Assembly: GCA_036279855.1 (NCBI GenBank)
Contig: DASUIH010000049.1
Span: forward strand, 11,517 to 75,516
Length of the DNA: 64,000 nt
Direction: 5' to 3'
From: Solirubrobacteraceae bacterium
Lineage (GTDB): Bacteria > Actinomycetota > Thermoleophilia > Solirubrobacterales > Solirubrobacteraceae
Shown here: piece by piece, positions 6,560-22,178 of the stretch
Numbering within the stretch: the first letter of the stretch is position 1
How the letters are laid out: each line of letters opens with the position of its first letter
Notes under the pieces: generated by a model
The model's input: the letters and a program-made list of their open reading frames with translations, nothing else
What the model was told of the DNA's origin: nothing
Databases searched by the model: none
Made by a program: the position numbers and the translations under genes

Positions 6560-6646
6560 GCTCGCGTGTCTACCCGACGCCACAGCGCGCAACCGGCTGG
6601 TCGCACGCTTTTCGGTGCCACCGATCCGCAGGAAGCCGTAGCGCGC

Positions 6647-7243
6647 GTGGCTGCGACTCGACGCCGGCTACTGCTGGCGTCACACAGCCGCGACCTGAGC
6701 TGGGACGAGCTGGAGGACTGCTACAGCCAGGCGACGTTCGAGATGCTGATGCGCGCCAGGTCGCGCGGGCCGTTCCGCAGCGATGAGCACATCGCCCACG
6801 CGCTTGAGCAGCGGCTCTGCTCGCGAATCGACGATCGCCACCGGGCGCGCGGCGGTCGCAGCCCCGGCGCAGCCGCCTTGGCGCACGCGCTGCCACTGGC
6901 GCTGTGCGATCGAAATCGCGCCACTCGCGCCACCGTCGACGAGCGTGCCGACGTCGAGCGAATCGTGCTGCAGCGCGAGGAACTGGGCCGCATCGCCCGC
7001 TACTCGCGCCGGCTCACACAGGACCAACGACTGTTGCTTCACAGCCAGATTGGCGGCGAGCAGACACCTGCCGCGTTTTGCACCGAGCACAACTGGAGCC
7101 TTGAGAAGTACCGCAAGGTAGGTCAGCGCGCCCGCGCGCGGCTGCTCGGGCTGCTTAGCAGCGAATCGGTTGTCCCGGTTGTGCTCGCTCGTCGGATCAG
7201 TGGGCACGGACCCGCTTGTGAAGCCACCTCGCCCACCACATAA
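6647..7243 (+). CDS. Putative ECF-like sigma-70 factor heading the T4SS-like operon
   Basis: C-terminal part of ORF 6278..7243; region-2-like DELEDCYSQATFEML and region-4-like LTQDQRLLL..TPAAFCTEHNWSLEKYRKVGQRARARL; GTG 6647 is an inferred start. Confidence 0.6.
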   Translation: MAATRRRLLLASHSRDLSWDELEDCYSQATFEMLMRARSRGPFRSDEHIAHALEQRLCSRIDDRHRARGGRSPGAAALAHALPLALCDRNRATRATVDERADVERIVLQREELGRIARYSRRLTQDQRLLLHSQIGGEQTPAAFCTEHNWSLEKYRKVGQRARARLLGLLSSESVVPVVLARRISGHGPACEATSPTT

Positions 7244-7252
7244 GCGCGTCCG

Positions 7253-7366
7253 CCGAGACGCCTCAGACCGGCACGGCAAACGGTCATATGGCGTCTCGGG
7301 CACGCGCGCAAGCGACCGGGAGCGGGAACACTCCCCGTCCCGGCTCCCGGTCGCCCGCGCCTCGTG
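7253..7366 (+). repeat. Two tandem inverted repeats (stem-loops) between the sigma-like gene and the transfer operon
   Basis: CCGAGACGCC (7253-7262)/GGCGTCTCGG (7290-7299) perfect 10 bp; GCGACCGGGAGC (7312-7323)/GCTCCCGGTCGC (7343-7354) perfect 12 bp, extendable with bulges to about 7301-7366. Confidence 0.75.
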
Positions 7367-7378
7367 GCGGAGGCGGAG

Positions 7379-7879
7379 ATGACGTTGCTCAAACGTGAGC
7401 CGCGCTCTGTCTACCGGGTCTACGCCGACGATGAGTACCTCGACAGCGAGCAGCCTGAGACCACGGCGGACTCGCAATCGCCGGCACCTGAGTTCGAGCC
7501 AACCAGCAACCCGGCCGCGCAGAAGCGTCAGCGGCCCGCGGTCGCCCTGCTGGTCGGGGCGTTGATCGTGATGGTCATGCTGGCGGCGGTCGCGATCGTC
7601 ATCGACGTGGGTCACGGCACACGCGGCCGCGCGAGGCCAGCCGTAGCGGCCGGCCCGGCTCGGCAGGGGATGTCGAAGCGCCGCCAGCCGCGGCGGTTGC
7701 GTCCGTACCGAAGGCCTGTCCGTGCCAAGCAGCAAAAGCAGCCCAAGCAGGCCGACTTAGATCGCAAGGCAAGGCAACAGCCGGCATCGGCGCCTGTGCC
7801 GGCACCACCCGTCGTTTTTGCCGTTCCCCGGCTGCGGCTTGCGCCGGATGCCCAGGTCGAGTTCGGCTTTGAGCGGTGA
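7379..7879 (+). CDS. Hypothetical single-pass membrane protein, first gene of the transfer operon
   Basis: ATG after GGAGGCGGAG; one hydrophobic segment AVALLVGALIVMVMLAAVAIVI; basic Pro-rich tail. Confidence 0.6.
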   Translation: MTLLKREPRSVYRVYADDEYLDSEQPETTADSQSPAPEFEPTSNPAAQKRQRPAVALLVGALIVMVMLAAVAIVIDVGHGTRGRARPAVAAGPARQGMSKRRQPRRLRPYRRPVRAKQQKQPKQADLDRKARQQPASAPVPAPPVVFAVPRLRLAPDAQVEFGFER

Positions 7880-7885
7880 GCGCCG

Positions 7886-8746
7886 ATGCCCGCCGGCGAG
7901 CGCCCATTGGTAACCGTGACCGCGCGGACGCTTTGGCGTTTGCGCCTGCGCCAGGAAGCGCCGCGGCTGTTGCTGCAAGCGGCTGCTGTCTTTGGGCTGC
8001 TGGCAAGCGCTCGTTACGCGATCGATCCGCCCGTGCCAAGCGTGAGAGTCCCACAGCTCGGACCGGCGACGCAGCCGGATCGCGGTGCCGAAGCCTTCGC
8101 GGCGCTGTTCGCACGCCGTTATCTGAGCTGGGACGCCGAGGAACCGGAAATGCATCGGCGGGAACTTGCTCCTTATGTCGACCAGCAGATGGAAGCCGAA
8201 GCGGGATTCCAACCGCCGCAGGCAGGCTCGCAGCGAGTGCTGTGGACACAGGTGGTTCAGGCGAGCGCCGGCGCCGCCGGCGAGCGCTACACGGTCGCTG
8301 TGCAAACCGATGCGTCGGGCCTGCTGTATCTCGGCATCGGCGTGAGACGTCTTGCCGGAGGAGCGCTCGCGCTGAGCGGATACCCGGCGTTTGTCGGCCC
8401 GCCACCGATCGCCGCGGCAGCGCCGTTGCCGCCATCGAGAGAAGTGCAGGACGGGGCGCTCGTCACGGTGGCCACGCGGGCGCTTCGCAACTATCTCGCG
8501 GGACAGGCCTCCGAGCTCGCCGCCGACTTGGCGCCGGGAGTTCAGGTTTCTCCCCCCTCACCGTCGCTCACGCTGGAATCGCTGTACGCGCTGGAGTGGC
8601 TGCACGCCGGCAGCTCGCTGTACGCGCTCGTGCATGCCAACGACCGCGCAGGCGGCAGCTACGCGCTCGCCTATCGCCTGGGCCTGGCCGATGCCGCCGG
8701 CCGTTGGGAGATCACCGCGATCGAACTGGCCGGCGGGAGTGACTAG
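7886..8746 (+). CDS. Conjugal transfer protein, TcpC/VirB8-like
   Basis: N-terminal TM, then AFAALFARRYLSW followed by two repeated beta-rich NTF2-like halves; position in operon. Confidence 0.72.
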   Translation: MPAGERPLVTVTARTLWRLRLRQEAPRLLLQAAAVFGLLASARYAIDPPVPSVRVPQLGPATQPDRGAEAFAALFARRYLSWDAEEPEMHRRELAPYVDQQMEAEAGFQPPQAGSQRVLWTQVVQASAGAAGERYTVAVQTDASGLLYLGIGVRRLAGGALALSGYPAFVGPPPIAAAAPLPPSREVQDGALVTVATRALRNYLAGQASELAADLAPGVQVSPPSPSLTLESLYALEWLHAGSSLYALVHANDRAGGSYALAYRLGLADAAGRWEITAIELAGGSD

Positions 8747-8836
8747 CCGCGCTTGGCGATGGCTGCGCGGGCCGAGCCGAATTTCGCAAAAACGCACACC
8801 AACCCATCCCAAAAATCAAAAGCAAGGAGATACGAG

Positions 8837-9184
8837 ATGAACAGAAATCGACGGCACGGCCTGCTGGCGCTGACTGCGATTTTGGCACTGAGCGTGCCGG
8901 CATCCCCGTCGGCCTTGGCACAGGCAGCGCCGATCCCGCTTGCGGATACCGCCGGCGCGTCGTCGCTTGAATCGGCTGCGACCAAGGCCGGCGAAACGGG
9001 ACGCAGGGTTGCGATGAGCATGATCGCGCTCGGCTTCGCGATCGCCTCAGTCGTGCTTGCTTTCCGTCGCGACTTCAAGGAGGCAGCGGGCGTGTTCGCG
9101 ATCGGCATTGTCGCAATCCTGCTTGCCACTCCCGCCGGCGTAAACGTTCTGCACGACACCGTCAACACCCTGTTCGGGAGCTGA
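8837..9184 (+). CDS. Pilin-like (VirB2/TcpD-type) membrane protein
   Basis: AAGGAG RBS; signal peptide ending ALAQAA, then two hydrophobic helices separated by RRDFKE. Confidence 0.65.
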   Translation: MNRNRRHGLLALTAILALSVPASPSALAQAAPIPLADTAGASSLESAATKAGETGRRVAMSMIALGFAIASVVLAFRRDFKEAAGVFAIGIVAILLATPAGVNVLHDTVNTLFGS

Positions 9185-9187
9185 GCG

Positions 9188-9706
9188 GTGGTCGAGATTC
9201 GCTCGTTTCGCACCGTCTTTGACCTTGAGCGGCGTATCTATCGGGTCGATCGCCTGCGCCTGAACCCCGCCGGCGTGCCTGTGCGCGGCATCGTCTACTT
9301 CCTGGTGATCGCTGCCTGCTGCGAGCTGGCGGCGCGACTGCCGCTGCTCGGCGCTCTTGCGGCTGCGCCCCCGTGGTATCTGCGCGAGCTGGCGTTGCCT
9401 GGCGCGCTGGCAGCCCTGTTCTGCTTGATCGCGATCGAGGGTCGCCCGTTTCACCTGGCCGCGCTTGCCCTCATACGGTTCGCCTTGGCGCCGCGCGAGC
9501 TCTCGGCATTGCGTGCGCGGCGCGAGCACGACCGCCGTCTGCTGCCGGGCGAGCTGCTGGTGCTGGTGGACGGCTCGGAGTCGCGCCGGCGCCGTCTGCG
9601 CTACACGGGCCCCGGCGCTGTGCGCGTGTACGGTCCTGCGCCGCGCCGCGGCCGTGTGATCGAGTTGGAGCGCGGCGGGCGCTTCGAGGTGGCGGCACGG
9701 CCGTGA
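9188..9706 (+). CDS. TcpE-like (VirB3-type) conjugal transfer membrane protein
   Basis: IRSFRTVFDLERRIYRVD..L..P N-terminal motif, two TM segments, IEGRP; stop overlaps start of the ATPase gene. Confidence 0.7.
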   Translation: MVEIRSFRTVFDLERRIYRVDRLRLNPAGVPVRGIVYFLVIAACCELAARLPLLGALAAAPPWYLRELALPGALAALFCLIAIEGRPFHLAALALIRFALAPRELSALRARREHDRRLLPGELLVLVDGSESRRRRLRYTGPGAVRVYGPAPRRGRVIELERGGRFEVAARP

Positions 9707-11753
9707 CTTTGCCGATCTCCTTCGTCTACGGCAACTTGGTCTTCGCCCGTCGACTCGATGACGTCTGGGCAGCGTTCCGGCTGCCCTGCTCTTCCTATGC
9801 CTGGCTCTCCTCGGAGGCCAAGCGCTCACGCTTCGCTGCCCTGGCAGGCGCGCTGGCGGCGATCGAGTCTGACCTGCAGCTCGTGCGCGTCAGCCAAGCG
9901 TGGGACATAGAGCGCTATCTGCGTGAGGCCGCGGCCGGCCAGGGCAGTCGGTCGGGCGCTCGACATGACTATGTGCAGGCGCACTGCCAGCACCTGCGCG
10001 AGCGCCTACCGCATGAGCCGTCGCTGTACGCGTTCGTCTCGTTGCGTGAGCCCGAGCGCGACATCTCCTCGTATGTCTCGCGTGCCGCCGAGCAGCACCC
10101 GCGCGAGTGGCTGCGCTCGCTCTCACGGGCTTTGCGCGCGCGCGACCGCCGGCTGCTGCCGTCGGCCGAGCTGGAGGCGCTGCGGGTGCGGGCCGATCGC
10201 GTGCACGCGCGCCTGAGCGATTACCTGCCGGCCCGGCCGGCTCGCGGGATCGAGCTGCAGTGGCTGGTGCGCCGCTGTTTCTGCCGCGGTCTCGGCGAGC
10301 CGCCGCTCGACGGCCTGCACGAGCCACGCGCGCTTGCCTTTGAGTGCAACGGCGAAGCGTTGCTGGCGCCATTGGAGGCGGATGTGGTGCGTTGGGCCGA
10401 GAGCCTGGTCGAGCACCGTGGCCGTTTGCTGAGAGTCGAGTCCGAGCTGGGCCGCAGCCACCAGGCATTGCTCGTGCTCGGCGCGTTGCCTGAGCACGCG
10501 AACTTCCCCTCCGAGCGCGTCGAGCTGTTGTTCGCGCCGCTGGAAACGCTCCCATTCCCGGTAGACGCTTCGCTCAACGCTCGTTTCCTGCCCAACGAGC
10601 TGGCTTTGCGCATCGCCCGCCGCAGGGTGCAGGACGCCGACCAGATCCTCCGTGCGGAGTCCGACGGCGACCAGGGCGTCTCGGAGGTCGGCTACGAGCG
10701 CACGCTGCAGGCACGCGACCTGCTGGCCTACCTGCAGTCGGCCTCGCGCCCGCCGCTGCTGCGCGCGACGCTCTCGCTTGCGATCGGTGCAAGCGAGGAG
10801 GACGAGCTGTCCGAGCGGGTCGAGTCGTGCCGGCGCGCCTACGGCGAGATCCGCCTGCACCGTCCGCTGGGCGACCAGTTGGCTTTGTTCTGCCAGCACC
10901 TGCCGGGTCAGCGCACGGCTGTCGCCGGCTACGACGACACGCTCACGAGCGAGCAGGTTGCCGCGATGATGCCGACCGCGGCGCATACGGTTGGCTCAGA
11001 CTCTGGCTTTTACCTCGGCCACACGCTGTCGGGCAGTCGCCGACCGGTGCGCTTCAACCTGCGCGAGGGGTCTGAGCGCGACCGCAACACCGCGATCCTC
11101 TCGGTCGGCGCGCTCGGCTCGGGCAAGACGACGCTCGCGCAGAAGCTCCAGTACGAGGCGTTCCTGCAGGGCGCCCGAGTGGTCGACTGCGATCCCAAGG
11201 GCGACCACGCTTTTCACCTGCTTGAGCAAGTGGCTCCGCACGCGCAGACGATCGCGCTGCGCCCCGACCCGGAGCTGCGCGGCATGCTCGACCCGCTGCA
11301 AGTTGCCCCCGAGCACCTGCGTCAGGAGGCGGCCGTGTCGTTCCTACGCGACCTGCTGCCCGCTCGGGCGGAGGCGGCCTGGGAGACGGCTGTCGTTGGC
11401 GCCGTCGAGGCGGTCCTGTGTCGCGCTCGCGAGCCGACCTGCCTAGAGGTGGTGCGGGCTCTGCGCGAGGCCGACGGAGAGGGTGCTCAGGTCGGTGAGG
11501 CGCTGGCGGTGTACGCGCGCTCGGGCATGACACAGCTGGCTTTTGCCGAGGCCGGCGTCCGCCGCGCCCTCTCTGTCGGCGAGGCGCAGGTCAGCTATAT
11601 CGCGATCCGCGATCTGCCGGCCCCTGAGCCGGGCACGCGGCGCGACGAATACACCCAAGCCGAGCGTGTCGGAGTGCAAATGGTGCGGCTGATCGCGATG
11701 TTCGCGATGCACCTGTTGGCCAGCGAGCGCGAGCGCCTGAAGGTGTTCGTGTT
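9703..11753 (+). pseudogene. VirB4/TcpF-like conjugation ATPase, 5' segment, interrupted in the Walker B motif
   Basis: GTG 9703 overlapping upstream TGA; Walker A GALGSGKTT, CDPKGD; frame reads LKVFV then runs into element sequence (LDSVL*). Confidence 0.9.
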
Positions 11754-11770
11754 GGATAGCGTACTTTAGC
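11735..11770. other. attL junction of the serine-recombinase element (core TT at 11752-11753)
   Basis: virB4 sequence ..AAG GTG TTC GTG TT| switches to non-coding GGATAGCGTACTTTAGC. Confidence 0.8.
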
Positions 11771-11904
11771 GTTCACGCGCGCTTTCACATGCGCTGCCGC
11801 GAATTTTGCGCTTCACGAGAGCCTACTCGCGAGTGCCGACGAAGCCCCTTCCAAGTCTGGTCGTGGACCCCGCGTCTACGCGACTGCTCGCAGCTGGAGC
11901 GAGG

Positions 11905-12261
11905 TCAGCCAGCTGCTACGAGATCGGCGCCTTGCCCGTCTTCGGCAAGGTCGGTGATGTCGTCGGCAAAGCCGACAACGAGGTGCGTCTGCAGGGCGTC
12001 CGCGAGCCTGCGGAGCGTCTGCACGGTCGTGGGATGCTGACCGCTCTCGATGCGAGAGATCGCCGAATGGCTCGTACCCATGCGCTTGGCAAGCTCAGCT
12101 TGGCTTAGGCCAAGCTGGCCTCGTCTACGAATGACGATGCGCGCCAATGCCTCGTATGGAGCTAGCCGTTCGAACTCGGCGCGATAAACGGGGTTGTGCA
12201 TCCGCCTGCGTGTCGCCTCCGTGACGGATTCCCCGACGGGTGAGATGGTTCGTTCCTTCAT
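11905..12261 (-). CDS. XRE-family HTH antitoxin (HigA-like)
   Basis: GLSQAELAKRMGTSHSAISRIESG HTH; directly downstream of a RelE-like toxin. Confidence 0.85.
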   Translation of the reverse strand: MKERTISPVGESVTEATRRRMHNPVYRAEFERLAPYEALARIVIRRRGQLGLSQAELAKRMGTSHSAISRIESGQHPTTVQTLRRLADALQTHLVVGFADDITDLAEDGQGADLVAAG

Positions 12262-12273
12262 CGTGTGCTTACC

Positions 12274-12289
12274 TTACCAAAATCGGTAA
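12274..12289. promoter_or_regulatory. Palindromic operator candidate upstream of the antitoxin
   Basis: TTACC-N6-GGTAA in an AT-rich 35-bp gap; TAAGGT -10-like hexamer on the minus strand 9 nt before ATG. Confidence 0.45.
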
Positions 12290-12296
12290 AGGGAGT

Positions 12297-12692
12297 CTAG
12301 GGGGCATCGCTGCCGGCCGGCCTCGGAGGTACCCGTCGCCTGGCGTCCATCCGTGCCTTGAAGTCGCGCCAGCGGACCTTCGCAAGCTCGATCTCGGCGG
12401 CCGGGACCCGGCCGGTGTTCTTGCGGATCATGTGCAGCAGGACAAAGAGGTTCATCGATCTGCGGTAGAGCACTCGGTAGAGCACCGGCCCGTAGTGACA
12501 ACGTAGCTCGCGCAACTCTCCGTCTATCTGAGAGCTGGCCGGGAAGGGCAGAGGCGGATCGCGCGAGCTAAGGCCGTTCAAACGCCCGATCGCAAGATCG
12601 ATCGCCGCCTGATGCTTGGCAGGTAGGCCGGCGATGAATTCGTCGACGGGCTGCCGGCCACGCGCGTCGCGGTAGTAGACGGCTTGCGTCAT
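12297..12692 (-). CDS. RelE/ParE-superfamily toxin (HigB/Gp49-like)
   Basis: YYRDARGRQPVDEFI..IDGELRELR..YRVLY..FVLLHMIRKNT pattern; toxin-before-antitoxin order. Confidence 0.85.
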   Translation of the reverse strand: MTQAVYYRDARGRQPVDEFIAGLPAKHQAAIDLAIGRLNGLSSRDPPLPFPASSQIDGELRELRCHYGPVLYRVLYRRSMNLFVLLHMIRKNTGRVPAAEIELAKVRWRDFKARMDARRRVPPRPAGSDAP

Positions 12693-12889
12693 TGCTCGGC
12701 GAGCCAGTCCTCAAGCATCGCTTGCGTGAAGCGGATGTGACGGCCGACGCGCAAGCACGGAAGTCGTCCCGAACGGACGGCGTCGTAGATCCAGCTGGTC
12801 TTGACTGAGAGCAGCTGCGCGGCTTGCTCTGGTCGTAGCAGGGGGTCGGTGAGTTTGGGTCGGAGCGGGTCGTCTGTGGCTGGGTTCAC
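12689..12889 (-). CDS. Excisionase-family (HTH_17/AlpA-like) DNA-binding protein
   Basis: LLRPEQAAQLLSVKTSWIYDAVRSGRLPCLRVGRHIRF. Confidence 0.85.
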   Translation of the reverse strand: MNPATDDPLRPKLTDPLLRPEQAAQLLSVKTSWIYDAVRSGRLPCLRVGRHIRFTQAMLEDWLAEQ

Positions 12890-14456
12890 GGGTTGGCCTC
12901 CTGGGGGTGGAGCATGGTCGTGATCGTGGGTGGTTGCGCGCGGCCCGGTGTGATGAGAAGTGCTTGTCCGGTCACGAGTTGCTGGATGTTGCTGGGGTGG
13001 ATGCGGTAGTCGTAGTCGCGGCGGCGGTTGCCGCGGTCGGTAGCTCCGTAGCGCCCGAGTTGGTGGTCGGTCTGCTGGCTTGTCACCCAGACGGGTTGGT
13101 GGCTCGCGACCTTCGCGATCGTCTCGGCCGAGCTGGGCACGTTCTGGCGGTGAGCGATGACTGCTTGAACGTTGCCGAGGACCTGGTCGCGCAGGCTCGC
13201 GTCCGCCGCCTGCAGGTCGGCAAGCTCCTGCGTTGCCAGCAGCAGGCTGATCCCGGCCGAGCGGGCGCGCCCGAACAGTCGCGCGACGTGTCGCGCGGCG
13301 AGTGCGGAGAACTCGTCGATCAACACGACGGTCGGCGTCGGGTCGGCCTGCAGATGCGCGGCGAGCGTGACGAGGTCGCTGACCAGGGCAGCGGCGACCA
13401 TCTGCGCGAGCAGCGGTCGACGGTCGGCGTCGAGCGCGAAGTAGACGACCGCTCGCGAGCGGACCGCTTCGCGCAGGTCGATGCTCGGTGCCTGCGTTGG
13501 ATCGAACCAGCGACGGACGTCTGACTCCGCGAGGATCGATAGACGGTCGCGCACGCCGGCGAGGTCGCGGCGCTGGCGGTCGGTCAACGAGTCGAGGTAG
13601 TCGTTGATTGGCTCTGCGTGTTGCTCGTCCAGTGAGCGGGCGGTCACTTCGAGCTGATCGGGTCGCAGGTGCTTCATCAGCGCGGGCACGGTGACTGTGA
13701 CGTCGGCGGCGTGCATCGCCCTGACGGCATGACCGAGATAGCGTTGCGCCAATCGCAGGTAGTGCGGCTCAGTGAACACCTCGCCGGCGAGCGCCTTGTC
13801 GGCGATCTCGCTGTCGCTGCCGCTGGCGTAGGGGTTGTATGCGCAGGGACCGTTGGGAGTCCATTGCAGGAACTCGCGGTTGGCGGCGCCCGCCGCTCGC
13901 TGCAGCTCGCCGCGAAGCATCCTGTCGCCTTCGGGTCGATCGCGATCGCGCCGTGACCGGCTTCGATCATCCGCCCAGCGATCCAGGCCTCGCTGACGGT
14001 CTTGCCGGCGCCGGTTGCGCCCAGGACGAGCGCGTGCGACCCCGACGTCGTCTCGAACGGGATCGTGACCGGCAAACCTCGACTGTCGTGTCCAACGATC
14101 AACGAGCGATGGAGCAGCCATCCGTCGCGTCTGATGCGACGGTCCAGCCGACCGCGTTGGATCGCGTCTGTGATGCGCAGTCGGGCTTCTGCGGCTTGCG
14201 CCAGATCGCGGCCGGCGACCAGGTCGGCGGAGTGCCAGCGTGCGCCTAAAAGTGTCGCCCGAACGCTGACCCCTATGACTGTCGCCGCAAGCGAGATCGA
14301 GATCGGTCGAGCGAGGAGCGCCAACGGCAGGATCAAGAGGCTCCAGGTCCACATCAGCGAGCGGCGGCGTTGCCAGCGCGCGACGGTCAGTCCGCCCAGC
14401 AGGGTTAGCGCGACGAACAAAGCCAGCCCCTCTATGAAGTGTTCAGGCGAGTGCAT
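12886..14456 (-). pseudogene. Type IV coupling protein (TraD/VirD4-like), frameshifted
   Basis: N-terminal TMs and Walker A GATGAGKT in ORF 13677..14456; Walker B VLIDEF and GRARSAGISLLLATQ in ORF 12886..14352; frame change at IDPK/GD (AAGGCGAC lacks one G, about 13928-13929). Confidence 0.85.
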
Positions 14457-15144
14457 TGGGGGCCAGGTTCGAGAGGCTTTTGATGACCGAAGCGCTGTCG
14501 TTGAGATTGGCCACGGTGATGCGATCGGTGGCGTGGGTCGCGCGGATGGCGCGTTCGACGGCGCGTGCGGGTGCTGGCTCAGCCAGGTAGTAGATATGTG
14601 CGAGATGGCGGGCGCGGGCCCAGCCGCGACAGATCGCGACCAAACGGGCGGCTGACTTAACAGACAGCTCGATCTCGATCGCTACTACGCGCCCGTCTGG
14701 GGCCACCAGCGCCAGGTCGGGACGGTGCATCGCGGGCCGATCAGCGATCGCGCCGACCTTTGCCGAGGCGACGAGCTCTCCGCTGTCGAGCTCCTGCGCT
14801 CTGATCTCGCGCTCGCTCAGAAGTTGCCAGTCGGCCAGTCCGCCCTCAAGCGTCACCGCGGACGCAGCGGTCTGCTAGGCGTGCTCGAATCCACCTGGCG
14901 ATAGCGAGCAGCGCCCGAGGCGTTGGTTTCCTTGCCAGTGAAGGCCCGCGGCGGTGGCGAGATACATTCCGGGCCGTGCGTAGAGGATCGCGTGGCGATC
15001 GAGCAGGCCATCGCGGACGAGTGAGCCGAGGCGGTCATAGGCCACGGTGCGGCTCATCGCAAAGCTGTGCATCACATGCTCGGCGCCGGCGGCGCCCAGG
15101 CGCCCGATCCAGTCGACGATCTGTCCGTCCCTGTAGGTCTGCAC
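14443..15144 (-). pseudogene. Replication-relaxation (Replic_Relax-like) protein with in-frame TAG
   Basis: N-terminal wHTH ORF 14875..15144 and PD-(D/E)xK-type half (HRPDL..VAIEIELSVKS) are in one frame, separated by TAG at 14875-14877; family assignment is by pattern only. Confidence 0.65.
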
Positions 15145-15458
15145 AACAGCCTCCGATCTCGCAAGAAGATTCCGTTCGAAGGCTTAATCCGTCGAAATCA
15201 CGCAAACGGGACACGACACGAGAAAAAACGACGTTCCGCAGCTTTAGCGGAGAACCGGAGTAGCGCCACGCACGCCTAGATCACTGTCCCCAGGTGCGGC
15301 AGTTTCAGTCCCGTTGTGAGGAACTCGGAGCGCGAGGACGTTGGGATCGAGGCGGCGCTCATGTAGAGCAGCTGTCACAAACCCAAGGGCATGAGGTGTT
15401 GCGGCGATCGCGCCCTATGCCAACCACGCCACATCTTGCCGTCCAGGTGGGACTGGAA

Positions 15459-15636
15459 GGTTTTCGACCGTCGTGGCCCGAACCACAAAAGCTTCATCCT
15501 TAAACAGCAACACATGCGGGCCGCGACGGTCGAAAACCGATCCAGGCCGTTAGGCCTGGCGGTTTTACTCCGCTCCAGCGGATTCGATCACCGGGACGTA
15601 GTCCCGGCCCCAATCCACCCTATGCAGACGCTCTGC
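15459..15636. repeat. Cluster of five inverted repeats in the element's intergenic region
   Basis: 22-bp IR 15459-15480/15517-15538 (1 mismatch); hairpins 15542-15559, 15569-15582, 15591-15607, 15624-15636. Confidence 0.8.
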
Positions 15637-15776
15637 GTCCCGTTACATGTGCGGTCGTCGGAATAGGGATCATGGCCCAATCTCCTCCGGTGATGCCGCC
15701 GTTGGCGGTGCAAGCCGCTCTTGCGACATTTGCTCGTATCACGGCTGAACGCCAGCCAGGCGTAGTGCTTGTGCCG

Positions 15777-17210
15777 CTAGGAAGCGTAGGCACGGACGGG
15801 GCCGTTGTCTCTGCCTCGACGGGGCAAGTCGTCCGGCCCTTCGCCTCGCCAGAGGATCGTGACGCGATCCGTGATCGAGCTCTGGCCGTCGTCGCGTCTC
15901 ACGATCACGGCGTCGATCGAGCTGCCGATGATGCGCTTGCGGTCCTCGATCGGCAGCTCGTCGTAGCGAGCGATCGCGTCTGTGTCTAGCGCAGGTCCGC
16001 TGACTTGTTGCAGTTGTGCCTGCGCACGATTGACGGCGGTCGCGCGCGCCTCAAGCGCGGCGTGGTAGCCGCTTGCCAACAGCCGCCGGGCGGTGAGGTC
16101 TGAAGCAAACGCCCTCAGCTCATCTTCAGCTGCTTCGAGTTCGGCCGTAGCTGCCTTGAGCGCCTGCGAATCTTGCTTTATTGATAGCGCCTGCTCTGCC
16201 ATCTGCTCGCGCCAAACAGTCTCCACGTAACGCTCCACAGCTTCCCTTGAGATGCTCGCCGGCGCTGGACAGGAGCCGGCACTATGGACCTCACGACAGC
16301 GATAGACCCGCGTCGGGTTTGGTCTTCCCCCGCCATAGACCTGCGGCGCCAATACGTATCTGCAGGCGGCACAGCGGACGATGCCGCCGAGCAGGTTCGG
16401 ACGCTTCCCTCTATGAGACGAGCGCACGGGGGCGAGATTCGCAGCTTGCCACTCGGCAAAGGTCACGATCGCCTCGTGAGCATCCGGGTTGACGGTCTCG
16501 CCGCGATATGCCTCACCGAGGTAGACACGATTTTTGAGGATGCGCTCGACGCTTGAGGTAATCCAGCGACCCCCATTTGGGCGCTGAGCGATCTCGTCTA
16601 GCCTGCGCGCGATGTCCGTGCGTGTCTTATGGGCTCCCCGCATGAGAAAAATCTCGCGTACGGCCGGCGCGTCGGCATTGGGCACGAGGCGTTTGTCGGG
16701 AGCTCTGTCATAGCCAAAGGGCGTGAACTTGGTGATGTGAACGCCGCGGGCGATCGCGTTGTGTGTAGCCGTCCCCCAGTTCTCGGCGATGCGGTCGCGC
16801 TCAAGCTCCGCAAACACGAGCAGGATGCGGAGAAATGCCTTGCCCATCGGTGTCGAGAGGTCCAGGTTCTCGGCGACGCTCACAAGCACTGCGCCGTGGC
16901 GCCCGAACTCTTCAAGAGTGCTCAGCGCCCCGACTAGCGTCCGAGCGAAACGGTCTAGCTTGGCGACGATCACACCATCGCTCTGTCCGCTTCTGATTCG
17001 GCCCACGATCTGATCGAAGATCGGGCGGCTCATGCTGCCGCCGGAGACGTCGAGCTCCGGTGCGTGCCAAGTCAGCGAATGCCCATGAGCTTTCGCCCAT
17101 CGCTCGATCTGCTCGCGCTGGACCTCGGGCGAGATGAAGCTCGGTCCGCCACGCCCGCGCACCTGCGAGACGCGGACATAGGCATCGAGCCTCAGTCCGT
17201 TCGAAGTCAT
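15777..17210 (-). CDS. Large serine recombinase (integrase)
   Basis: YVRVS catalytic motif, SGGSMSRP, LDRFAR, recombinase domain (W..SSVERILKNRVYLG), Zn ribbon CAAC..C..C; ATG 17210 is 23 bp inside the right junction. Confidence 0.95.
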   Translation of the reverse strand: MTSNGLRLDAYVRVSQVRGRGGPSFISPEVQREQIERWAKAHGHSLTWHAPELDVSGGSMSRPIFDQIVGRIRSGQSDGVIVAKLDRFARTLVGALSTLEEFGRHGAVLVSVAENLDLSTPMGKAFLRILLVFAELERDRIAENWGTATHNAIARGVHITKFTPFGYDRAPDKRLVPNADAPAVREIFLMRGAHKTRTDIARRLDEIAQRPNGGRWITSSVERILKNRVYLGEAYRGETVNPDAHEAIVTFAEWQAANLAPVRSSHRGKRPNLLGGIVRCAACRYVLAPQVYGGGRPNPTRVYRCREVHSAGSCPAPASISREAVERYVETVWREQMAEQALSIKQDSQALKAATAELEAAEDELRAFASDLTARRLLASGYHAALEARATAVNRAQAQLQQVSGPALDTDAIARYDELPIEDRKRIIGSSIDAVIVRRDDGQSSITDRVTILWRGEGPDDLPRRGRDNGPVRAYAS

Positions 17211-17216
17211 GGGTTT

Positions 17217-17252
17217 GCAATTTAGCATTGTTATTCGACGAGGGATGGAGGC
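17217..17252. other. attR junction of the serine-recombinase element (core TT at 17234-17235)
   Basis: ..TTTAGCATTGTTA|TT C GAC GAG GGA TGG resumes the virB4 frame (FDEGW). Confidence 0.8.
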
Positions 17253-17620
17253 TTCTAGGCGATCCGGTCGGTCGCTCGCTGTTGGCCTCGCTGCAGCGAA
17301 TGGGCCGATCTGAGCTGGCCGTGCCGATCGTCTGCACGCAGCTGGTCACCGACGCGCTGCTCGGCGAGCGCGAGTCGCTTGAGAACCTGCTGGGGGCGAC
17401 ATTCGTGTTCGGCATGCGCTCGGAGGCCGAGGCGGCACGTGCCCTGTCGTTGCTTGGGCTCGACCCTGACGATCGGCATGCGCGCGAGCGCCTGCTGGAA
17501 ATGGACTCGGGGCGCTGTCTGTTCCGAGACCACAGCGGACGCGTCGAGGCGATCCAGGTTGAGCTTGTCGCGCCGGCGCTGTTGCGGGCGTTCTCGACGA
17601 TGCCGGCACCGGCGGCATGA
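17236..17620 (+). pseudogene. VirB4/TcpF-like ATPase, 3' segment
   Basis: FDEGWRLL..LQRMGRSELAVPIVCTQ..SGRCLFRDHSGRV, the C-terminal motifs absent from the 5' segment; its TGA overlaps the next ATG. Confidence 0.9.
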
Positions 17621-19839
17621 GCCGAACGCCTACGACGGCGAGGGTCGCGGTTCTTGGCATGCTGCTGCTCGCGGGGAGCGGGAGCGTGCCCGGGTCGGCC
17701 TACGCGGTCGCCGCGCGCTCTTCACCCCGCCATCGGGCTCCCACTCGTGCCCCGTCCGGGCCACCGCTCGTCGGCACCGGTGCGGCGGCGGGCGAAGAAA
17801 CCGAGCAGACCGTCGGCATCGAATCCGTCGCCGGCGACCAGTTGGTTGAAAATGGCCTGTCCAGCCCGCTCTGCAAAGGCGCGGTGGCCGCGTCCCTGTC
17901 GAGCGCCTCGCGCTCGGATTGCGCAAGCTCAGGGTTCGTCGGCGCGGCTGCGCCGTCCAACAACTACGCGCTTGACGTTCACATCGACACGGGCGCGTTC
18001 GGTCTGAGCAAGGGGGGCCTGCTCTCGGTCGTGCAGGACATTTTCATAGCTCCGGCGTGGGGAGCGCTTGAGTGGCTGGCGCACGCACTCGTGGTGATGC
18101 TCGAATGGTGCTACACGCTGGAACTGCTGGGCGGCGCCGGCACGAGCACCGTGGCGCATGCGCTGCTACAGGCACGGGCGGGCTTTACCGAACCGTGGCT
18201 GGCCCTGGTGTTGGCGCTCGCTTCATTGCTCGCCCTCTACCACGGCCTGGTGCAGCGCCGCGTGGCCGACACGCTCGGCGGCGCGCTGACGATGCTGGCG
18301 ATGATGGCGGGCGGCCTGTGGGTGATCGCCGACCCGGGCGGCACTGTCGGCGCGGTCGGTGGCTGGGCCAACCAGGCAAGCCTTGGCACGCTCGCCGCGA
18401 GTGCCAGCGGATCGCCGGGCGGCGGGGCGGCAACGCTCGCCGACGGCATGCGCGCGCTGTACACGGCCGCGATCGAAACACCCTGGTGCTACCTGGAGTT
18501 CGGCAACGTGCGTTGGTGCAGCGACCCCTCGCGGCTAGATCCGCGGCTGCGCGCGGTTGCGTTGGCCCTGGCAGCCGGCGGCAAACAGGACGTCGCAGTG
18601 CCGGCGCAAGCCGCCGAGCTGGCGCGTGTCGCGAGCACCAATGGCGCGCTGTTCCTGGCTTTTCCCGCCAATGGCCCACAGCGCAACTCGATCAATCAGC
18701 GCAGCTCGTTGTTGCGCGCCATCTGTCGCAGCCAAGAAGCCACCAAATGCACGGGCTCCGCGGCGCCCGAGGCCGAGTTTCGGACCGACGGCGGCACCTT
18801 CCCGCGCCTGCTCGGGCTGCTTGCGATCGCCGTCGGCGTGCTTGGCATGGCGCTGCTGTTCGGCCTGCTTGCACTGCACCTGCTGGCGGCGGCCTTCGTC
18901 GGCCTGTTCCTGTTGCTGCTGGCGCCGCTGGCGGTGCTGGCGCCGGCCTTTGGCGATGGTGGCCGGGCGTTGTTCACGGCCTGGTTGACGCGGCTGCTGG
19001 CAGCCTTCAGCTCCAAGCTGCTGTTCTCGTTCGTGCTGGGTGCGTCGCTGACGATGCAGCGGGCGCTGGCTGCGCTGGACACGCTCGGCTGGTGGACACA
19101 GTGGCTGCTCACCTGTGGCTTTTGGTGGACGCTGTTCGTCAAGCGCCACGAGCTGGCGGCGATGGCGCGGAGCGCCGGACGGCAAGGCGGGTCGTCGCGT
19201 TCTGCCGGACAACGCGACGGCAGCACGCACGTGTCTCCGGCTGGTATCGGCGCCGGCGGCCGACCGGGCGGTGGTGGCGGTGTCCGCCCGCTGCCGTTGC
19301 TGCGCCGAGCAGAGAACGCATTGCAGACATACGGCGTGGTGCGTCACCCAGCCAGGTGGGCCGAGGCTCAGATCGGCGCGCGGATCGCCCAGCGCCAGCC
19401 GCGAGAGGAGCGCCCGGCGCCCGGCCGGCAAAAGCAGCAGCAGCCGGCGGTTGCTGGGCGCCGTTTGCGCGAGCGCGCGTCACATCTGCTGCATGCTCGC
19501 GATCGCCGCTTGTCGCAAAGCGCCCGGCCGGCGGAGCCTACTGAGCCCTGGGTCGATCGGACCCGGGCGGCTGGCGCTGCTCACCGATCTTTGCAACAGC
19601 CGCGGCAGCAGTCACAGCCCTCCGAGCAGCCGCAGCAACAACTGTTGCCGTCGTCGGTCTCGGATCGGCGTGGTGGCGTAGCGGCGCCGGCTAGTAGCGC
19701 ACCGCTCTCTCCACCTCGCCGCGAGCAGCTCAAGCCTCCTGCGCCTGCCCTCCGCGAAGAGCGCTCACCGGTGATGGAAGACGCGTTTGCTGTGGCACGC
19801 GGGCGCAAGCGCCAGCTCGGCTACGACTCCGAGCAGTGA
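17617..19839 (+). CDS. Polytopic conjugation membrane protein (VirB6/TcpH-like)
   Basis: Signal-like N-terminus, several TM clusters, low-complexity Arg/Gln/Pro tail; ATGA coupling to virB4. Confidence 0.7.
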   Translation: MSRTPTTARVAVLGMLLLAGSGSVPGSAYAVAARSSPRHRAPTRAPSGPPLVGTGAAAGEETEQTVGIESVAGDQLVENGLSSPLCKGAVAASLSSASRSDCASSGFVGAAAPSNNYALDVHIDTGAFGLSKGGLLSVVQDIFIAPAWGALEWLAHALVVMLEWCYTLELLGGAGTSTVAHALLQARAGFTEPWLALVLALASLLALYHGLVQRRVADTLGGALTMLAMMAGGLWVIADPGGTVGAVGGWANQASLGTLAASASGSPGGGAATLADGMRALYTAAIETPWCYLEFGNVRWCSDPSRLDPRLRAVALALAAGGKQDVAVPAQAAELARVASTNGALFLAFPANGPQRNSINQRSSLLRAICRSQEATKCTGSAAPEAEFRTDGGTFPRLLGLLAIAVGVLGMALLFGLLALHLLAAAFVGLFLLLLAPLAVLAPAFGDGGRALFTAWLTRLLAAFSSKLLFSFVLGASLTMQRALAALDTLGWWTQWLLTCGFWWTLFVKRHELAAMARSAGRQGGSSRSAGQRDGSTHVSPAGIGAGGRPGGGGGVRPLPLLRRAENALQTYGVVRHPARWAEAQIGARIAQRQPREERPAPGRQKQQQPAVAGRRLRERASHLLHARDRRLSQSARPAEPTEPWVDRTRAAGAAHRSLQQPRQQSQPSEQPQQQLLPSSVSDRRGGVAAPASSAPLSPPRREQLKPPAPALREERSPVMEDAFAVARGRKRQLGYDSEQ

Positions 19840-20951
19840 GGGCCGGCGCGATCCCGGTTCGAGCAGGCACCAAAGCGGTCGTGGCTGCCGTCTTTGTCGT
19901 GACGGCCTTTTGCGTTGCCCTGCTGATGCTTGTCGCCGCCCTGGCGGGTGCCGGCACAGCTTCGACCGTTCAGGCCGGCGGCCTTGGCGTCTCCGCGCGA
20001 GCGCGCGCCGACATTCCGCCGCGCTATCTGGCGCTTTATCGCAGTGCCGCAGCGCGCTATGGCCTGGATTGGGCGATCCTTGCTGGGATCGGCAAGGTCG
20101 AGTGCGATCACGGCCGCGACCCCGATCCGTCGTGTACGCGTGAGGGAGCGGTCAACTCGGCCGGCGCTGGTGGCCCAATGCAGTTCCTGGCGGCGACATT
20201 CAGCGAGTACGGAGTCGCCCCGCAAGGGGGCAGGCCGGATCGTTGGGATGCCGCGGACGCGATCTACTCGGCGGCCAACTACCTGCGAGCAGCCGGCGCG
20301 CCTGGTGACTACCACCGGGCGATCTTCGCCTATAACCACGCTGACTGGTACGTAGCCGAGGTCGAGCGTTGGGCCACGCTTTACCGTGGCCCGGCACTGG
20401 CGGTGGAGACGCTGGCCGGCGAAGCCGAAAACGGGGTGGAGCAATGGCCCGGCGTCGGGCCGGTCCGCTACGTCGCCGGCGTCCGAGCACGCCTTGCGCC
20501 GGGCGACGGCCACGTGGCACTGGTCCCGTCGGCTGCGCCGGCAGCCGTCCAGGCGATGGTGATCGCCGGCAACGAGCTGCAGACGCTGCCATACGGGCCG
20601 ACGGGCCATCCCGACCCGCGTGGCGCCGACAGCGAGGACTGCTCAAGCACCGTCAACTACGTGCTCTATCGCTCAGGAGTGCGTCCGATCGATGAAATCG
20701 TGCGCGAGAACCCGCTGGCACAGGACTACGTCGACTGGGGTGAGCCAGGGCCCGGGCGCTGGGTGACGATCTACGCCACGACCGCGCCCACCGACCACGT
20801 CTTCATCGTGATCGCCGGGCTGCGCCTGGACACCTCGCACGATGGCACCGACGTGGGTCCCAACCGCGATCAGGACGGGCCACGCTGGCGCGTCCTCGAC
20901 CGCATCCCGACCTGGGCGCACTGGTCGGCCCGCCACCCGCCCGGGTTGTAA
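19836..20951 (+). CDS. Bifunctional cell-wall hydrolase (lytic transglycosylase plus NlpC/P60-like domain), VirB1-like
   Basis: YGLDWAILAGIGKVE, GPMQF, AANYL, AIFAYNH; C-terminal DCSS...HV. Confidence 0.85.
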   Translation: MRAGAIPVRAGTKAVVAAVFVVTAFCVALLMLVAALAGAGTASTVQAGGLGVSARARADIPPRYLALYRSAAARYGLDWAILAGIGKVECDHGRDPDPSCTREGAVNSAGAGGPMQFLAATFSEYGVAPQGGRPDRWDAADAIYSAANYLRAAGAPGDYHRAIFAYNHADWYVAEVERWATLYRGPALAVETLAGEAENGVEQWPGVGPVRYVAGVRARLAPGDGHVALVPSAAPAAVQAMVIAGNELQTLPYGPTGHPDPRGADSEDCSSTVNYVLYRSGVRPIDEIVRENPLAQDYVDWGEPGPGRWVTIYATTAPTDHVFIVIAGLRLDTSHDGTDVGPNRDQDGPRWRVLDRIPTWAHWSARHPPGL

Positions 20952-20960
20952 GGTGGCGTT

Positions 20961-22178
20961 GTGAGCGTGCGTGAGGTCGACTACCTGCTGGTCGGTGGCG
21001 GGCTGGCTTGCGCCAACTGCGCGCGCTGGCTGCGCGAGTCCGGCGCGGAGGGGGAGATCCTGCTTGTCGGCCGCGAGCCCGATGCCCCCTACAATCGCCC
21101 GGATTGCTCCAAGGGCTATCTGCGAGGGGAGGAGTCGCGCGAGCAGCCGCTGTTTCGCCCTGCCGACTTCTGGGAGGAGCAGCGGATCGAGTTGCTGACG
21201 CGTACCAGTGTGACCGCGCTCGATGCGCAGGCGCGCACGGCCAAGCTCTCAAACAAGCAAGAGGTCTCGTTCGAGAAGGCTTTGCTTGCCACCGGCGCCA
21301 ACGTGAGGCGGCTGAACGTGCCCGGCTGCGAGCTTGAGCAGATCCACTATCTACGCACGCTCGGCAACTCCGACGCGATCCGCGAGGGGGTCGCCGACGC
21401 CGAGCGCGTCGTGCTGATCGGCGGCTCCTACATCGGCTGCGAGGTGGCGGCCTCGCTAACGATGATGGGCAAGCAGGCCACGATCGTGATGCAGGAGGAC
21501 GTGACGCTCGAACGCGGCTTCGGCAAGGACGCCGGCCGCTTCTTCCAAGGTTTGCTCGAACAGCACGGCGTCACGATCCACGGCAAAGACGGCCTCGATC
21601 GCTTTGAGGGCGAGGGCCGTGTCGGCAAGGTCGTGACTACAAGCGGCCTGGAGCTTCCCGCCGAAGCGGTTGTGATCGGCGCTGGAGTCACGCCCGACGT
21701 TGCGCTGGCCCAGCGCGCCGGGCTGCAGATCGGCGAAAGGGGGGGTGTGCTCACTTCTTCGCGTCTGCAGACTTCGGCCCCCGGCGTCTACGCCGCCGGT
21801 GACATCGCCGAGTACGACTCGCCGCTGCACGACGGGCACGTGCGCATCGAGCATTGGGACGTCGCCTTCAACCACGGCAAGACCGCCGCGCTGAACATGC
21901 TCGGGCGCGACGTGCCGCATGAAGTGGTTCCCTACTTCTACTCGGTGCTCGCCGATTGGGGTGAGCTGGAGTACGTGGGGCCGGCATACGGATGGGATCA
22001 GGAGATAGTGCGCGGCTCCTATGACAGCGGCGAGTTCACGACTTGGTACCTCAAGGACAACGCCGTCAAGGCGGCGCTCACGTTCGGTCGCTCCGACGAC
22101 CTCGATCGCGCCCGTGAGTTGATCGCGTGCAAGGGCCCGCTCAGCGAGGACGAGCGGGCCGGCCTCGCCCGGGTATAG
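20961..22178 (+). CDS. FAD-dependent pyridine nucleotide-disulfide oxidoreductase (ferredoxin reductase-like)
   Basis: LVGGGLA, PYNRP, LIGGSYIGCEVA, TSAPGVYAAGD, RIEHW. Confidence 0.92.
   Translation: MSVREVDYLLVGGGLACANCARWLRESGAEGEILLVGREPDAPYNRPDCSKGYLRGEESREQPLFRPADFWEEQRIELLTRTSVTALDAQARTAKLSNKQEVSFEKALLATGANVRRLNVPGCELEQIHYLRTLGNSDAIREGVADAERVVLIGGSYIGCEVAASLTMMGKQATIVMQEDVTLERGFGKDAGRFFQGLLEQHGVTIHGKDGLDRFEGEGRVGKVVTTSGLELPAEAVVIGAGVTPDVALAQRAGLQIGERGGVLTSSRLQTSAPGVYAAGDIAEYDSPLHDGHVRIEHWDVAFNHGKTAALNMLGRDVPHEVVPYFYSVLADWGELEYVGPAYGWDQEIVRGSYDSGEFTTWYLKDNAVKAALTFGRSDDLDRARELIACKGPLSEDERAGLARV

Follow-up and report, generated by a model that had tools for sequence, protein, structure and literature searches.

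The stretch of DNA analyzed here, referred to as the window, comprises 64,000 nucleotides of contig DASUIH010000049.1 (positions 11,517 to 75,516) from a Solirubrobacteraceae bacterium, a member of the Thermoleophilia within the Actinomycetota whose genome is a metagenome-assembled genome (MAG) in 49 contigs with 4% contamination. Between a BrkB/YihY gene on the minus strand and a gene for a ferredoxin-reductase-type flavoprotein (FdR) on the plus strand lie the co-oriented, plus-strand genes of a type IV secretion system (T4SS), and the virB4 ATPase gene of this system is interrupted by an integrated element that resembles an integrative and mobilizable element (IME). The window was examined by open reading frame (ORF) listing, third-position GC content (GC3) and hidden Markov model (HMM) scans against Pfam and NCBIfam, and synteny was assessed by tblastn. 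An initial annotation made from the sequence had placed T4SS genes between yihY and the ferredoxin reductase, with a 9-bp gap before the latter, and the ORFs and Pfam matches bear out that placement. The annotation missed the interruption of virB4, however, and described a tight operon that had no integrase, no relaxase and no coupling protein. The two halves of the AAA_10 ATPase domain are in fact separated by about 5.5 kb of genes, mostly on the minus strand, and among them, between the first and last genes of the supposed operon, are a recombinase (15777-17228), a relaxase-like gene (14443-15144) and a coupling protein gene (12886-14456), all on the minus strand.

An element inserted at the Walker B codons of virB4

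The AAA_10 family (PF12846) is matched in two complementary halves roughly 5.5 kb apart, in reading frames at 9373-11769 (profile positions 18-247) and 17228-17620 (profile positions 245-362), with scores of 85.3 and 79.1 bits. The first 683 codons of virB4 occupy 9703-11753 on the plus strand and end at the dinucleotide TT (11752-11753) where crossover took place; the C-terminal 127 codons occupy 17236-17620 on the same strand and start with DEGW of the Walker B motif. The element, 5,482 bp long (11754-17235), splits the gene between these codons (F/DEGW, the slash here and below marking the crossover point). In the integrated state, the frame of the N-terminal part enters the element, reads LDSVL and stops at 11767-11769. 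Joining the flanks in silico restores an in-frame VirB4 of 811-812 amino acids, which is 89% identical to P0002 over 810 amino acids, end to end (residues 1-809). A search with residues 300-804 of the joined protein returned 1,484 homologues at E<=0.001, with matches covering 100% of the searched length; the best 120 of these are 77-91% identical, are mostly exactly 811-812 amino acids long, and come from Solirubrobacteraceae genomes and soil metagenomes.

The junctions were placed by comparison with 12 uninterrupted relatives and with the closest relative, a farmland scaffold from ENA (L088) whose VirB4 is 89% identical. The empty site in L088 reads CTGAAGGTGTTCGTCTT/CGACGAGGGCTGG, and the 12 other relatives have the same site. 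Crossover falls at the TT just before CGACGAGGG, which encodes D-E-G in Walker B, and TT is found at both junctions (11752-53 and 17234-35). The attachment sites are CTGAAGGTGTTCGTnTT/CGACGAGGGnTGG for attB, ...GTGTT/GGATAGCGTACTTTAGCG for attL and TGCAATTTAGCATTGTTATT/CGACGAGGG for attR. The GC content of the element is 0.62-0.66, versus 0.68-0.70 in the surrounding DNA. Against L088, the two VirB4 halves show dN/dS ratios of 0.15 (N-terminal) and 0.10 (C-terminal), the C-terminal half is 91% identical at the amino acid level, and neither half carries any other lesion. As an element with its own recombinase sits within virB4, these genes cannot give a working machine as they stand; excision of the element would be needed first.

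Within 11754-17235, the ORFs are limited to five minus-strand genes and a doubtful frame at 15391-15666, with no VirB4 or channel genes among them. The intact gene next to attR (15777-17228) encodes a large serine recombinase of 483 amino acids (Resolvase, 98.9 bits; Recombinase, 49.9 bits; Zn_ribbon_recom, 35.6 bits), whose start codon lies about 7-25 bp from the attR junction and whose best NCBIfam likenesses, to XisF and CcrB, are both below cut-off. At the other end are genes for a HigA-like helix-turn-helix antitoxin (11905-12261; HTH_3, 58 bits) and a HigB/Gp49-like toxin (12297-12692; PF05973, 44.6 bits). The gene at 12886-14456 encodes a VirD4-type coupling protein with TraG-D_C and TrwB_AAD_bind matches, an N-terminal transmembrane (TM) region and the Walker A sequence GATGAGKT. 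Its frame is lost after IDPK through a deletion of 1 nt in a run of G (GGG to GG) within 13921-13940, and it is recovered as a two-frame match, at 53% identity, to a coupling protein (T4CP2) encoded elsewhere in the same genome.

The remaining gene, at 14443-15144, is MOBC/Replic_Relax-like, with a winged helix-turn-helix (wHTH) N-terminus and C-terminal motifs of PD-(D/E)xK type. An in-frame TAG at 14875-14877 replaces a codon that specifies Trp in relatives and in the host paralogue, and the small ORFs 14875-15144 and 14443-14856 are the two parts of this single broken gene. The product is 45% identical to RR2, a protein encoded next to T4CP2. Neither it nor RR2 has a direct Pfam match, and the alignment of their family was connected by hhalign (probability 93.9%, E 1.6e-7) to the Replic_Relax domain, PF13814, of another host protein, gene A, introduced below. 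PF13814 belongs to the MOBC relaxase superfamily (PMC5357655), and Steczkiewicz et al. (PMC3424549) placed it in the PD-(D/E)XK fold. The space separating the relaxase-like gene from the recombinase holds an inverted repeat of 22 nt (15459-15538; 95% complementary, with a loop of 36 nt), which overlaps the doubtful frame and is a candidate oriT or terminator; upstream of the relaxase gene, two related elements showed no conserved repeat like it.

Judging from this gene content, the element is, or was, of the IME type, with a serine integrase, its own VirD4-type coupling protein, a MOBC-like relaxase gene, a HigBA pair and no channel genes. The integrase is complete and the ends are defined. 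Coluzzi et al. (2017) also require a complete relaxase coding sequence in their definition of an IME (PMC5357655), and because the relaxase-like gene is broken by the TAG, the window copy would count as a decayed IME by that standard. With a frameshift in the coupling protein gene, a stop codon in the relaxase-like gene and an intact recombinase, this copy is probably no longer self-mobilizable, although it may still excise.

A vertically inherited T4SS cluster

All of the T4SS genes lie on the plus strand. The gene nearest yihY, g1 (6647-7243), encodes an ECF-like sigma factor candidate (ECF, extracytoplasmic function) and is followed by g2 (7364-7879), encoding a single-pass membrane protein with one TM segment (residues 55-86) and the C-terminal motif EFGFER. 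Next come genes for a TcpC (VirB8-like) component (7886-8746; PF12642, 30.8 bits against a cut-off of 27), a VirB2/TrbC-like pilin candidate with three hydrophobic segments (8753-9184; PF04956, E 0.001, below cut-off) and a TcpE/VirB3-like small membrane protein with two TM segments (9188-9706; PF12648, E 0.017, below cut-off). The pilin-like gene is conserved in all relatives. Past the C-terminal part of virB4 are a gene for a VirB6/TcpH-like polytopic membrane protein (17617-19839), related below cut-off to the CD3337/EF1877 mobilome membrane proteins (NF046089, E 3e-8), and one for a cell-wall hydrolase with an SLT domain (19836-20951; SLT_2 34.1 bits and SLT 25.1 bits, above cut-off). The VirB6/TcpH-like protein has four hydrophobic stretches in a Kyte-Doolittle scan, one of them 57 residues long (393-449). 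The TM topologies of this protein and of the TcpE/VirB3-like candidate fit these putative roles.

The gene identities proposed by the initial annotation held up in part. Those of TcpC, VirB4 and the SLT domain are above cut-off, the pilin, TcpE and VirB6 assignments are weak and fall below it, and NlpC/P60, proposed for the C-terminus of the hydrolase, has no HMM support in Pfam or NCBIfam. The C-terminal 176 residues of the hydrolase have no Pfam match even at E 10. With an AAA_10 ATPase, a TcpC/VirB8-like component and a cell-wall hydrolase, the cluster has three features of a monoderm T4SS (MPF_FA/FATA, Tcp-like), and its VirB6/TcpH-like and TcpE/VirB3-like proteins are candidates for a fourth.

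Both flanks are conserved. YihY/BrkB, a family of membrane proteins, is encoded at 5648-6592 on the minus strand (PF03631, 118.9 bits) and is next to the cluster in 14 relatives. FdR, at 20961-22178 on the plus strand (Pyr_redox_2, 206.7 bits; Reductase_C), comes after the hydrolase gene in 15 relatives among those checked; L086 showed no FdR. The spacing between hydrolase gene and FdR is 9-85 bp in most relatives and up to about 770 bp in four. Given the short spacing in most of them, FdR and the cluster may share a transcript; FdR has no apparent functional link to the T4SS.

VirB4 orthologues of 63-75% identity are present in most species of the same genus (21 of the 24 in one sample and 10 of the 12 in a second), and also in genera g14, g20, g22, g31 and g46 of the family. 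Most of the remaining genera gave either no VirB4 or just paralogues of 38-50% identity. Synteny was checked by tblastn over regions of about 18 kb in 17 relatives. The full order Lon-YihY-g1-(g2)-TcpC-pilin-g5-VirB4-VirB6-SLT-FdR, followed by two further conserved genes, is uninterrupted in 10 genomes of the same genus, and the order is likewise held without interruption in L088. Four genomes from genera g14 and g31 keep the core order g1-VirB4-VirB6-SLT and have YihY, FdR or both at the ends, the flanks being incomplete in some of them (Lon and YihY were not found in L084, nor Lon and FdR in L086). In all, 15 of the 17 relatives, drawn from three genera, have an uninterrupted cluster. G024, the sixteenth, shares the flanks, with VirB4 broken by an insertion elsewhere in the gene, and only G025, from another family, has the cluster outside these flanks.

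Divergence agrees with this picture. Relative to L088, synonymous divergence (dS) is 0.43-0.66 for the cluster genes and 0.40-0.50 for Lon, YihY and FdR; that the cluster equals its housekeeping flanks in this respect argues for vertical inheritance. Correlation of pairwise protein distances gives r 0.65-0.71 for VirB4 against FdR, YihY and Lon, compared with 0.55-0.66 among the housekeeping proteins themselves. The features expected of an integrative and conjugative element (ICE), namely a boundary integrase, att repeats and patchy occurrence, are missing, as 16 of the 17 relatives have the cluster at this one locus and without an integrase. No att-like boundaries were found around it, and no tRNA gene was found within positions 1-30000 of the window, as had been stated at the outset. 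The T4SS cluster is a vertically inherited chromosomal locus and not an ICE. The initial annotation had proposed a domesticated chromosomal machine and recommended synteny and phylogeny as the check; locus conservation in 15 relatives of three genera (and in G024), dS values like those of the flanks, and the distance correlations all agree with that proposal, and the distribution is vertical rather than patchy.

Some relatives appear to be losing the system. The VirB4 orthologue contains internal stops or frameshifts in two genomes (G253:C1:2861893-2863526 and G018:C1:526039-528421) and is absent from the whole genomes of G064 and G179, the former of which keeps the second locus described below, with its gene A interrupted. 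Decay in the first pair and absence in the second suggest repeated loss or inactivation. In G024, a member of the same genus, about 16 kb interrupts VirB4 at residues ~230-249 (L025:8978 to L026:6155; C1 ~2853977-2870155). This insert carries genes of a defence-island-like kind (DarT-like, ADP-ribosylglycohydrolase, UvrD-like helicase and HNH-repeat genes), and no recombinase was found among the ORFs scanned. In G009 there is about 3.3 kb of additional DNA between the TcpE-like gene and an intact VirB4 (L018:4690-8001, C9).

The claim that 6647-7243 encodes a sigma-like factor gains support, although not from the family databases, as g1 has no Pfam or NCBIfam match. A profile built from 16 orthologues matches two ECF sigma factors, CnrH (E 0.007) and 9isn_F (E 0.011), in both cases over the C-terminal half, which resembles sigma region 4. 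The AlphaFold (AF2) model of g1 (pLDDT 78.6) has two helical domains, candidates for sigma2 and sigma4, with a disordered linker between them. When it was compared with the PDB by Foldseek, all of the top 50 matches were sigma factors (sigma-E, SigH, SigL, AlgU, SigK and others), with probabilities of up to 1.0, E values of 0.005-0.3 and TM scores of about 0.3; two domains on a flexible linker would be expected to score low in this way. The g1 orthologue of genera g14 and g31 runs on into an H-x3-C-x2-C segment (zf-HC2, E 0.011) and a TM helix. These fused forms (L083:3576-5189 on the minus strand, L084:2920-5010, L085 and L086) have a long tail rich in Ala, Pro and Ser that ends in EFGFE[RK]. 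In the genus of the window the TM helix and the EFGFE[RK]-type ending are encoded separately, as g2, and the zinc-finger segment is missing; g2 is the counterpart of the C-terminal part of the fused protein. It is probable but not proven that g1 is sigma-like and has a membrane-anchored partner.

A second locus and sister elements

Searches with the coupling and relaxase-like proteins of the element led, through their paralogues, to a second locus on contig C26 of the same genome. Its gene order is gene A, gene B, T4CP2, RR2, SSB (single-stranded DNA-binding protein), maoC, hrcA, dnaJ and prmA, and its genes are all uninterrupted. Gene A encodes 1,184 amino acids with a TM segment, a P-loop ATPase domain that weakly resembles TraD and, at the C-terminus, a PF13814 domain (49.3 bits; cut-off 25.3). 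T4CP2 (C26:52109-53719, 537 amino acids) is a type IV coupling protein (T4CP) with TrwB_AAD_bind (41 bits), TraG-D_C (34 bits) and T4SS-DNA_transf (27.9 bits) all above cut-off. RR2, of 247 amino acids, is a second MOBC-like protein and is tied to the PF13814 domain of gene A only by the hhalign comparison already given. T4CP2-like genes occur in all 24 genomes sampled from the same genus and in 1 of 16 genomes from other families of the order (E 1.1e-21). The locus is syntenic in five of seven relatives examined and partly so in a sixth. The T4SS was thus misnamed when it was called an orphan: a conserved locus elsewhere on the chromosome holds a VirD4-type coupling protein, an ATPase-Replic_Relax fusion, a second MOBC-like protein and an SSB.

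In G214, a member of a more distant genus (VirB4 50% identical), a homologue of gene A lies immediately downstream of the T4SS hydrolase gene (L087:595-3075, C3). This contiguity links the two loci functionally, and the arrangement in G214 is probably the undivided ancestral state. On paper, then, the clade has a complete conjugation-type apparatus distributed over two chromosomal loci, comprising a channel, a coupling protein, MOBC-type relaxase candidates and an SSB.

Related elements were sought by searching 300 genomes of the family with the recombinase and two large sequence collections with the pattern of the attR arm. Three further assemblies have a recombinase of 69-76% identity abutting the C-terminal part of VirB4 at the identical junction. 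Two of these are DATCBT010000039.1 and Ga0182024_10014131. The third, OY970158.1, is a closed 2.6-Mb chromosome in which about 101.6 kb lies between the VirB4 halves and both att arms resemble those of the window. Its insert has no VirB4 of its own and gives scattered dc-megablast matches (67-81%) to contigs C33 and C3 of the window's genome. Beside the N-terminal part of VirB4 in this chromosome (L065:13959-14144) is a recombinase fragment consisting of the last 62 residues only (63% identity) and pointing in the same direction as virB4; it lies at the attL-type junction and may be the remnant of an earlier element, left by accretion, or the product of rearrangement.

The same recombinase lineage also strikes the second locus. 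Sister recombinases of 62% and 53% identity split gene A between residues 485 and 486 in G064, where the insert is 23.8 kb, and in G049; the target, CTGAAGAACTTGTT/CGATCAAGG, is similar to that in virB4. The relaxase-like and coupling protein genes of the G049 element are uninterrupted and adjoin the recombinase. In phylogenetic trees, the modules of element type (relaxase followed by coupling protein, in the window, G049 and G005) form a clade apart from the modules of the host locus (coupling protein followed by relaxase), with support of 1.0 and 0.998, which identifies them as an element lineage and not as recent copies of host genes. The module in G005 (L079:7699-9994, C1) is without the flanks of the host locus, and no serine recombinase related to that of the window lies within 8 kb of it; its integration may depend on a different integrase.

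Interpretation, alternatives and precedents

The explanation that we consider likely is a fixed chromosomal T4SS in two loci, with a serine-recombinase mobilizable element inserted in its virB4 gene and partly decayed in the window copy. The coupling protein, MOBC-type proteins and SSB of the second locus, together with elements that target genes of the system, point to DNA transfer, and we infer that the two loci together encode a conjugation-type DNA-transfer system of the chromosome. The element would have entered virB4 through its own large serine recombinase at the TT within the Walker B codons, silencing the host channel for as long as it remained integrated. Excision by the recombinase would rejoin virB4 in frame and free a circle, which its own relaxase and coupling protein could then feed into the restored host channel. 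The HigBA addiction pair would stabilize the element, and the sigma-like g1 would regulate the T4SS cluster. A bolder proposal is that a clade of soil Actinomycetota keeps the core two-locus apparatus for Hfr-like (high frequency of recombination) chromosomal exchange, and that a guild of serine-recombinase elements specialized on its ATPase genes acts as a set of reversible gates, each opening the channel only on its departure; this we put forward only tentatively, as we think it rather doubtful.

Several observations weigh against the favored explanation. The relaxase assignment consists of a profile-profile likeness over the part from the wHTH to the His only, together with a weak MobC_subf match of the host paralogue (E 0.009). 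Both mobilization genes are broken in the window copy, which weakens the case for an active IME, and the 1-nt deletion in the coupling protein gene could itself be an error in the assembly of the MAG. No recombination directionality factor was identified for the element, and the attP-type pattern was not found in a collection of viral contigs. Lastly, the insert of about 101.6 kb in OY970158.1 has cargo-type Pfam matches at both ends and the recombinase fragment at its far end, and may be one island or the outcome of accretion or rearrangement.

The reading closest to that of the initial annotation is an orphan, domesticated T4SS without integrase, relaxase or coupling protein, repurposed under its own ECF-like sigma factor for a task such as protein secretion. 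Vertical inheritance, the fixed locus and the sigma-like g1 would suit it, as would the ancestral form of the cluster, which in the gene table of L088 includes no coupling protein, relaxase or integrase, and the chromosomal, relaxase-less T4SS of Patescibacteria offer a precedent (PMC12102498). We nevertheless judge it unlikely. The second locus preserves a coupling protein, two MOBC/Replic_Relax proteins and an SSB, the gene A homologue of G214 adjoins the cluster there, the elements that target genes of the system carry paralogous coupling protein and relaxase modules, and the window itself contains an integrase and a coupling protein.

Elements that interrupt functional genes and are excised by large serine recombinases include skin/SpoIVCA in sigK, the fdxN element with XisF, and the comK prophage of Listeria. 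The present element shares with these a large serine recombinase, a position within a functional gene, and an excision that would precisely restore the frame, and it could be a domesticated intervening element whose programmed excision turns the T4SS on while mobilization genes decay as unneeded. The exactly restored frame fits such a role, as do an intact recombinase beside a broken coupling protein gene and a broken relaxase-like gene, VirB4 halves free of other lesions, a best NCBIfam likeness to XisF (albeit below cut-off), and a recombinase start abutting attR, so that excision changes the promoter context. Nonetheless, the gene is uninterrupted in 15 relatives, including the closest (89% VirB4 identity), and the element is therefore not fixed in the lineage; it occurs in a minority of genomes and, unlike the skin/XisF type, has mobilization genes and variable cargo. 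Inserts at the VirB4 site range from 5.5 kb to about 101.6 kb and differ in cargo, as those of mobile elements do, sister elements strike a different gene, and the addiction module suggests selfish maintenance. Domestication of this kind thus seems quite improbable.

That the entire stretch from 6.6 to 21 kb is the remnant of one ICE, including recombinase, coupling protein and relaxase-like gene, would account for the occurrence of every ICE module type within 15 kb, and the GC3 of the cluster (0.72-0.80) is slightly under that of its neighbors (0.83-0.88). This origin is highly improbable and was rejected. The recombinase-coupling protein-relaxase segment is missing from 15 relatives in which the cluster is otherwise collinear, it interrupts an ORF instead of flanking the cluster, the cluster has the dS of its flanks, and there is no tRNA gene or boundary repeat. 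A chimeric join in the MAG, conceivable in an assembly of 49 contigs with 4% contamination, was rejected as the least probable origin of the insert, because the junction is shared by three independent assemblies (a closed 2.6-Mb chromosome among them), whose recombinases are related to that of the window and whose att arms are the same.

Both components of the favored explanation, the fixed two-locus T4SS and the mobilizable element in its virB4 gene, have precedents. Conjugation machines normally belong to plasmids and ICEs, and the Tcp conjugation locus of Clostridium perfringens plasmid pCW3 is a T4SS of the MPF_FA-FATA type (Guglielmini et al. 2014, PMC4027160). The cluster described here is similar to it in having TcpC, a TcpE-like protein, an AAA_10 ATPase of the VirB4/TcpF type, a VirB6/TcpH-like protein and a peptidoglycan hydrolase, all in one co-oriented cluster. 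It differs in having a VirD4-type coupling protein in place of one of TcpA/FtsK type, relaxase candidates of MOBC type, a pilin-like gene, a sigma-like regulator, and a chromosomal location divided between two loci.

Chromosomal T4SS of monoderm type are widespread in Patescibacteria, where most clusters have no relaxase and are thought to have been co-opted for epibiosis (Quinonero-Coronel et al. 2025, PMC12102498). Like them, the present system is MPF_FATA-related, chromosomal and outside any recognizable mobile element, but a VirD4 coupling protein, MOBC-type proteins and an SSB are conserved at its second locus, and its hosts are free-living soil bacteria with genomes of 2.6-4.5 Mb. For the element, the nearest relative in design is the streptococcal IME_Class_8 (Coluzzi et al. 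2017, PMC5357655), in which a serine integrase goes together with a VirD4 coupling protein and a PF13814/MobC relaxase. Serine-integrase IMEs of streptococci insert in traG, maff2 and snf2 of Tn5252-type ICEs, and coupling of their excision to the induction of conjugation has been proposed (PMC5357655). The two share a compact set of serine integrase, VirD4-type coupling protein and MOBC-type relaxase gene without VirB4 or channel genes, as well as site-specific insertion that disrupts a conserved conjugation gene. Here, however, the target is the Walker B codons of virB4, or gene A, and not traG, maff2 or snf2; the host machine is vertically inherited in Actinomycetota (Thermoleophilia) and is not an ICE of Firmicutes; and the window copy has lesions in both mobilization genes and a relaxase domain that is PF13814-like at the profile level only.

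In the literature searched, neither a chromosomal T4SS nor an IME within a conjugation gene has been described for Thermoleophilia or Solirubrobacteraceae. What is new is a vertically inherited two-locus system of free-living Actinomycetota that has kept coupling protein and MOBC genes, and the use of virB4 (at Walker B) and an ATPase-relaxase gene as targets by one recombinase lineage. A core two-locus chromosomal T4SS of monoderm type in several genera of abundant soil dwellers would be the second example after Patescibacteria, and the retained coupling protein and relaxase-type genes, unlike the situation in Patescibacteria, suggest DNA transfer owned by the host. Repeated insertion in the Walker B codons of virB4 or in the partner ATPase gene would extend the streptococcal idea of IMEs in conjugation genes to another phylum and another target. 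The concrete att sites and six natural examples can be used to test whether excision gates a secretion machine, and the recombinase, with its defined attB and attP arms, may be a new site-specific integrase. The same genome encodes two more large serine recombinases, at C36:1742-3166 (~42% identity to that of the element) and at C21:89019-90506 (33-35%).

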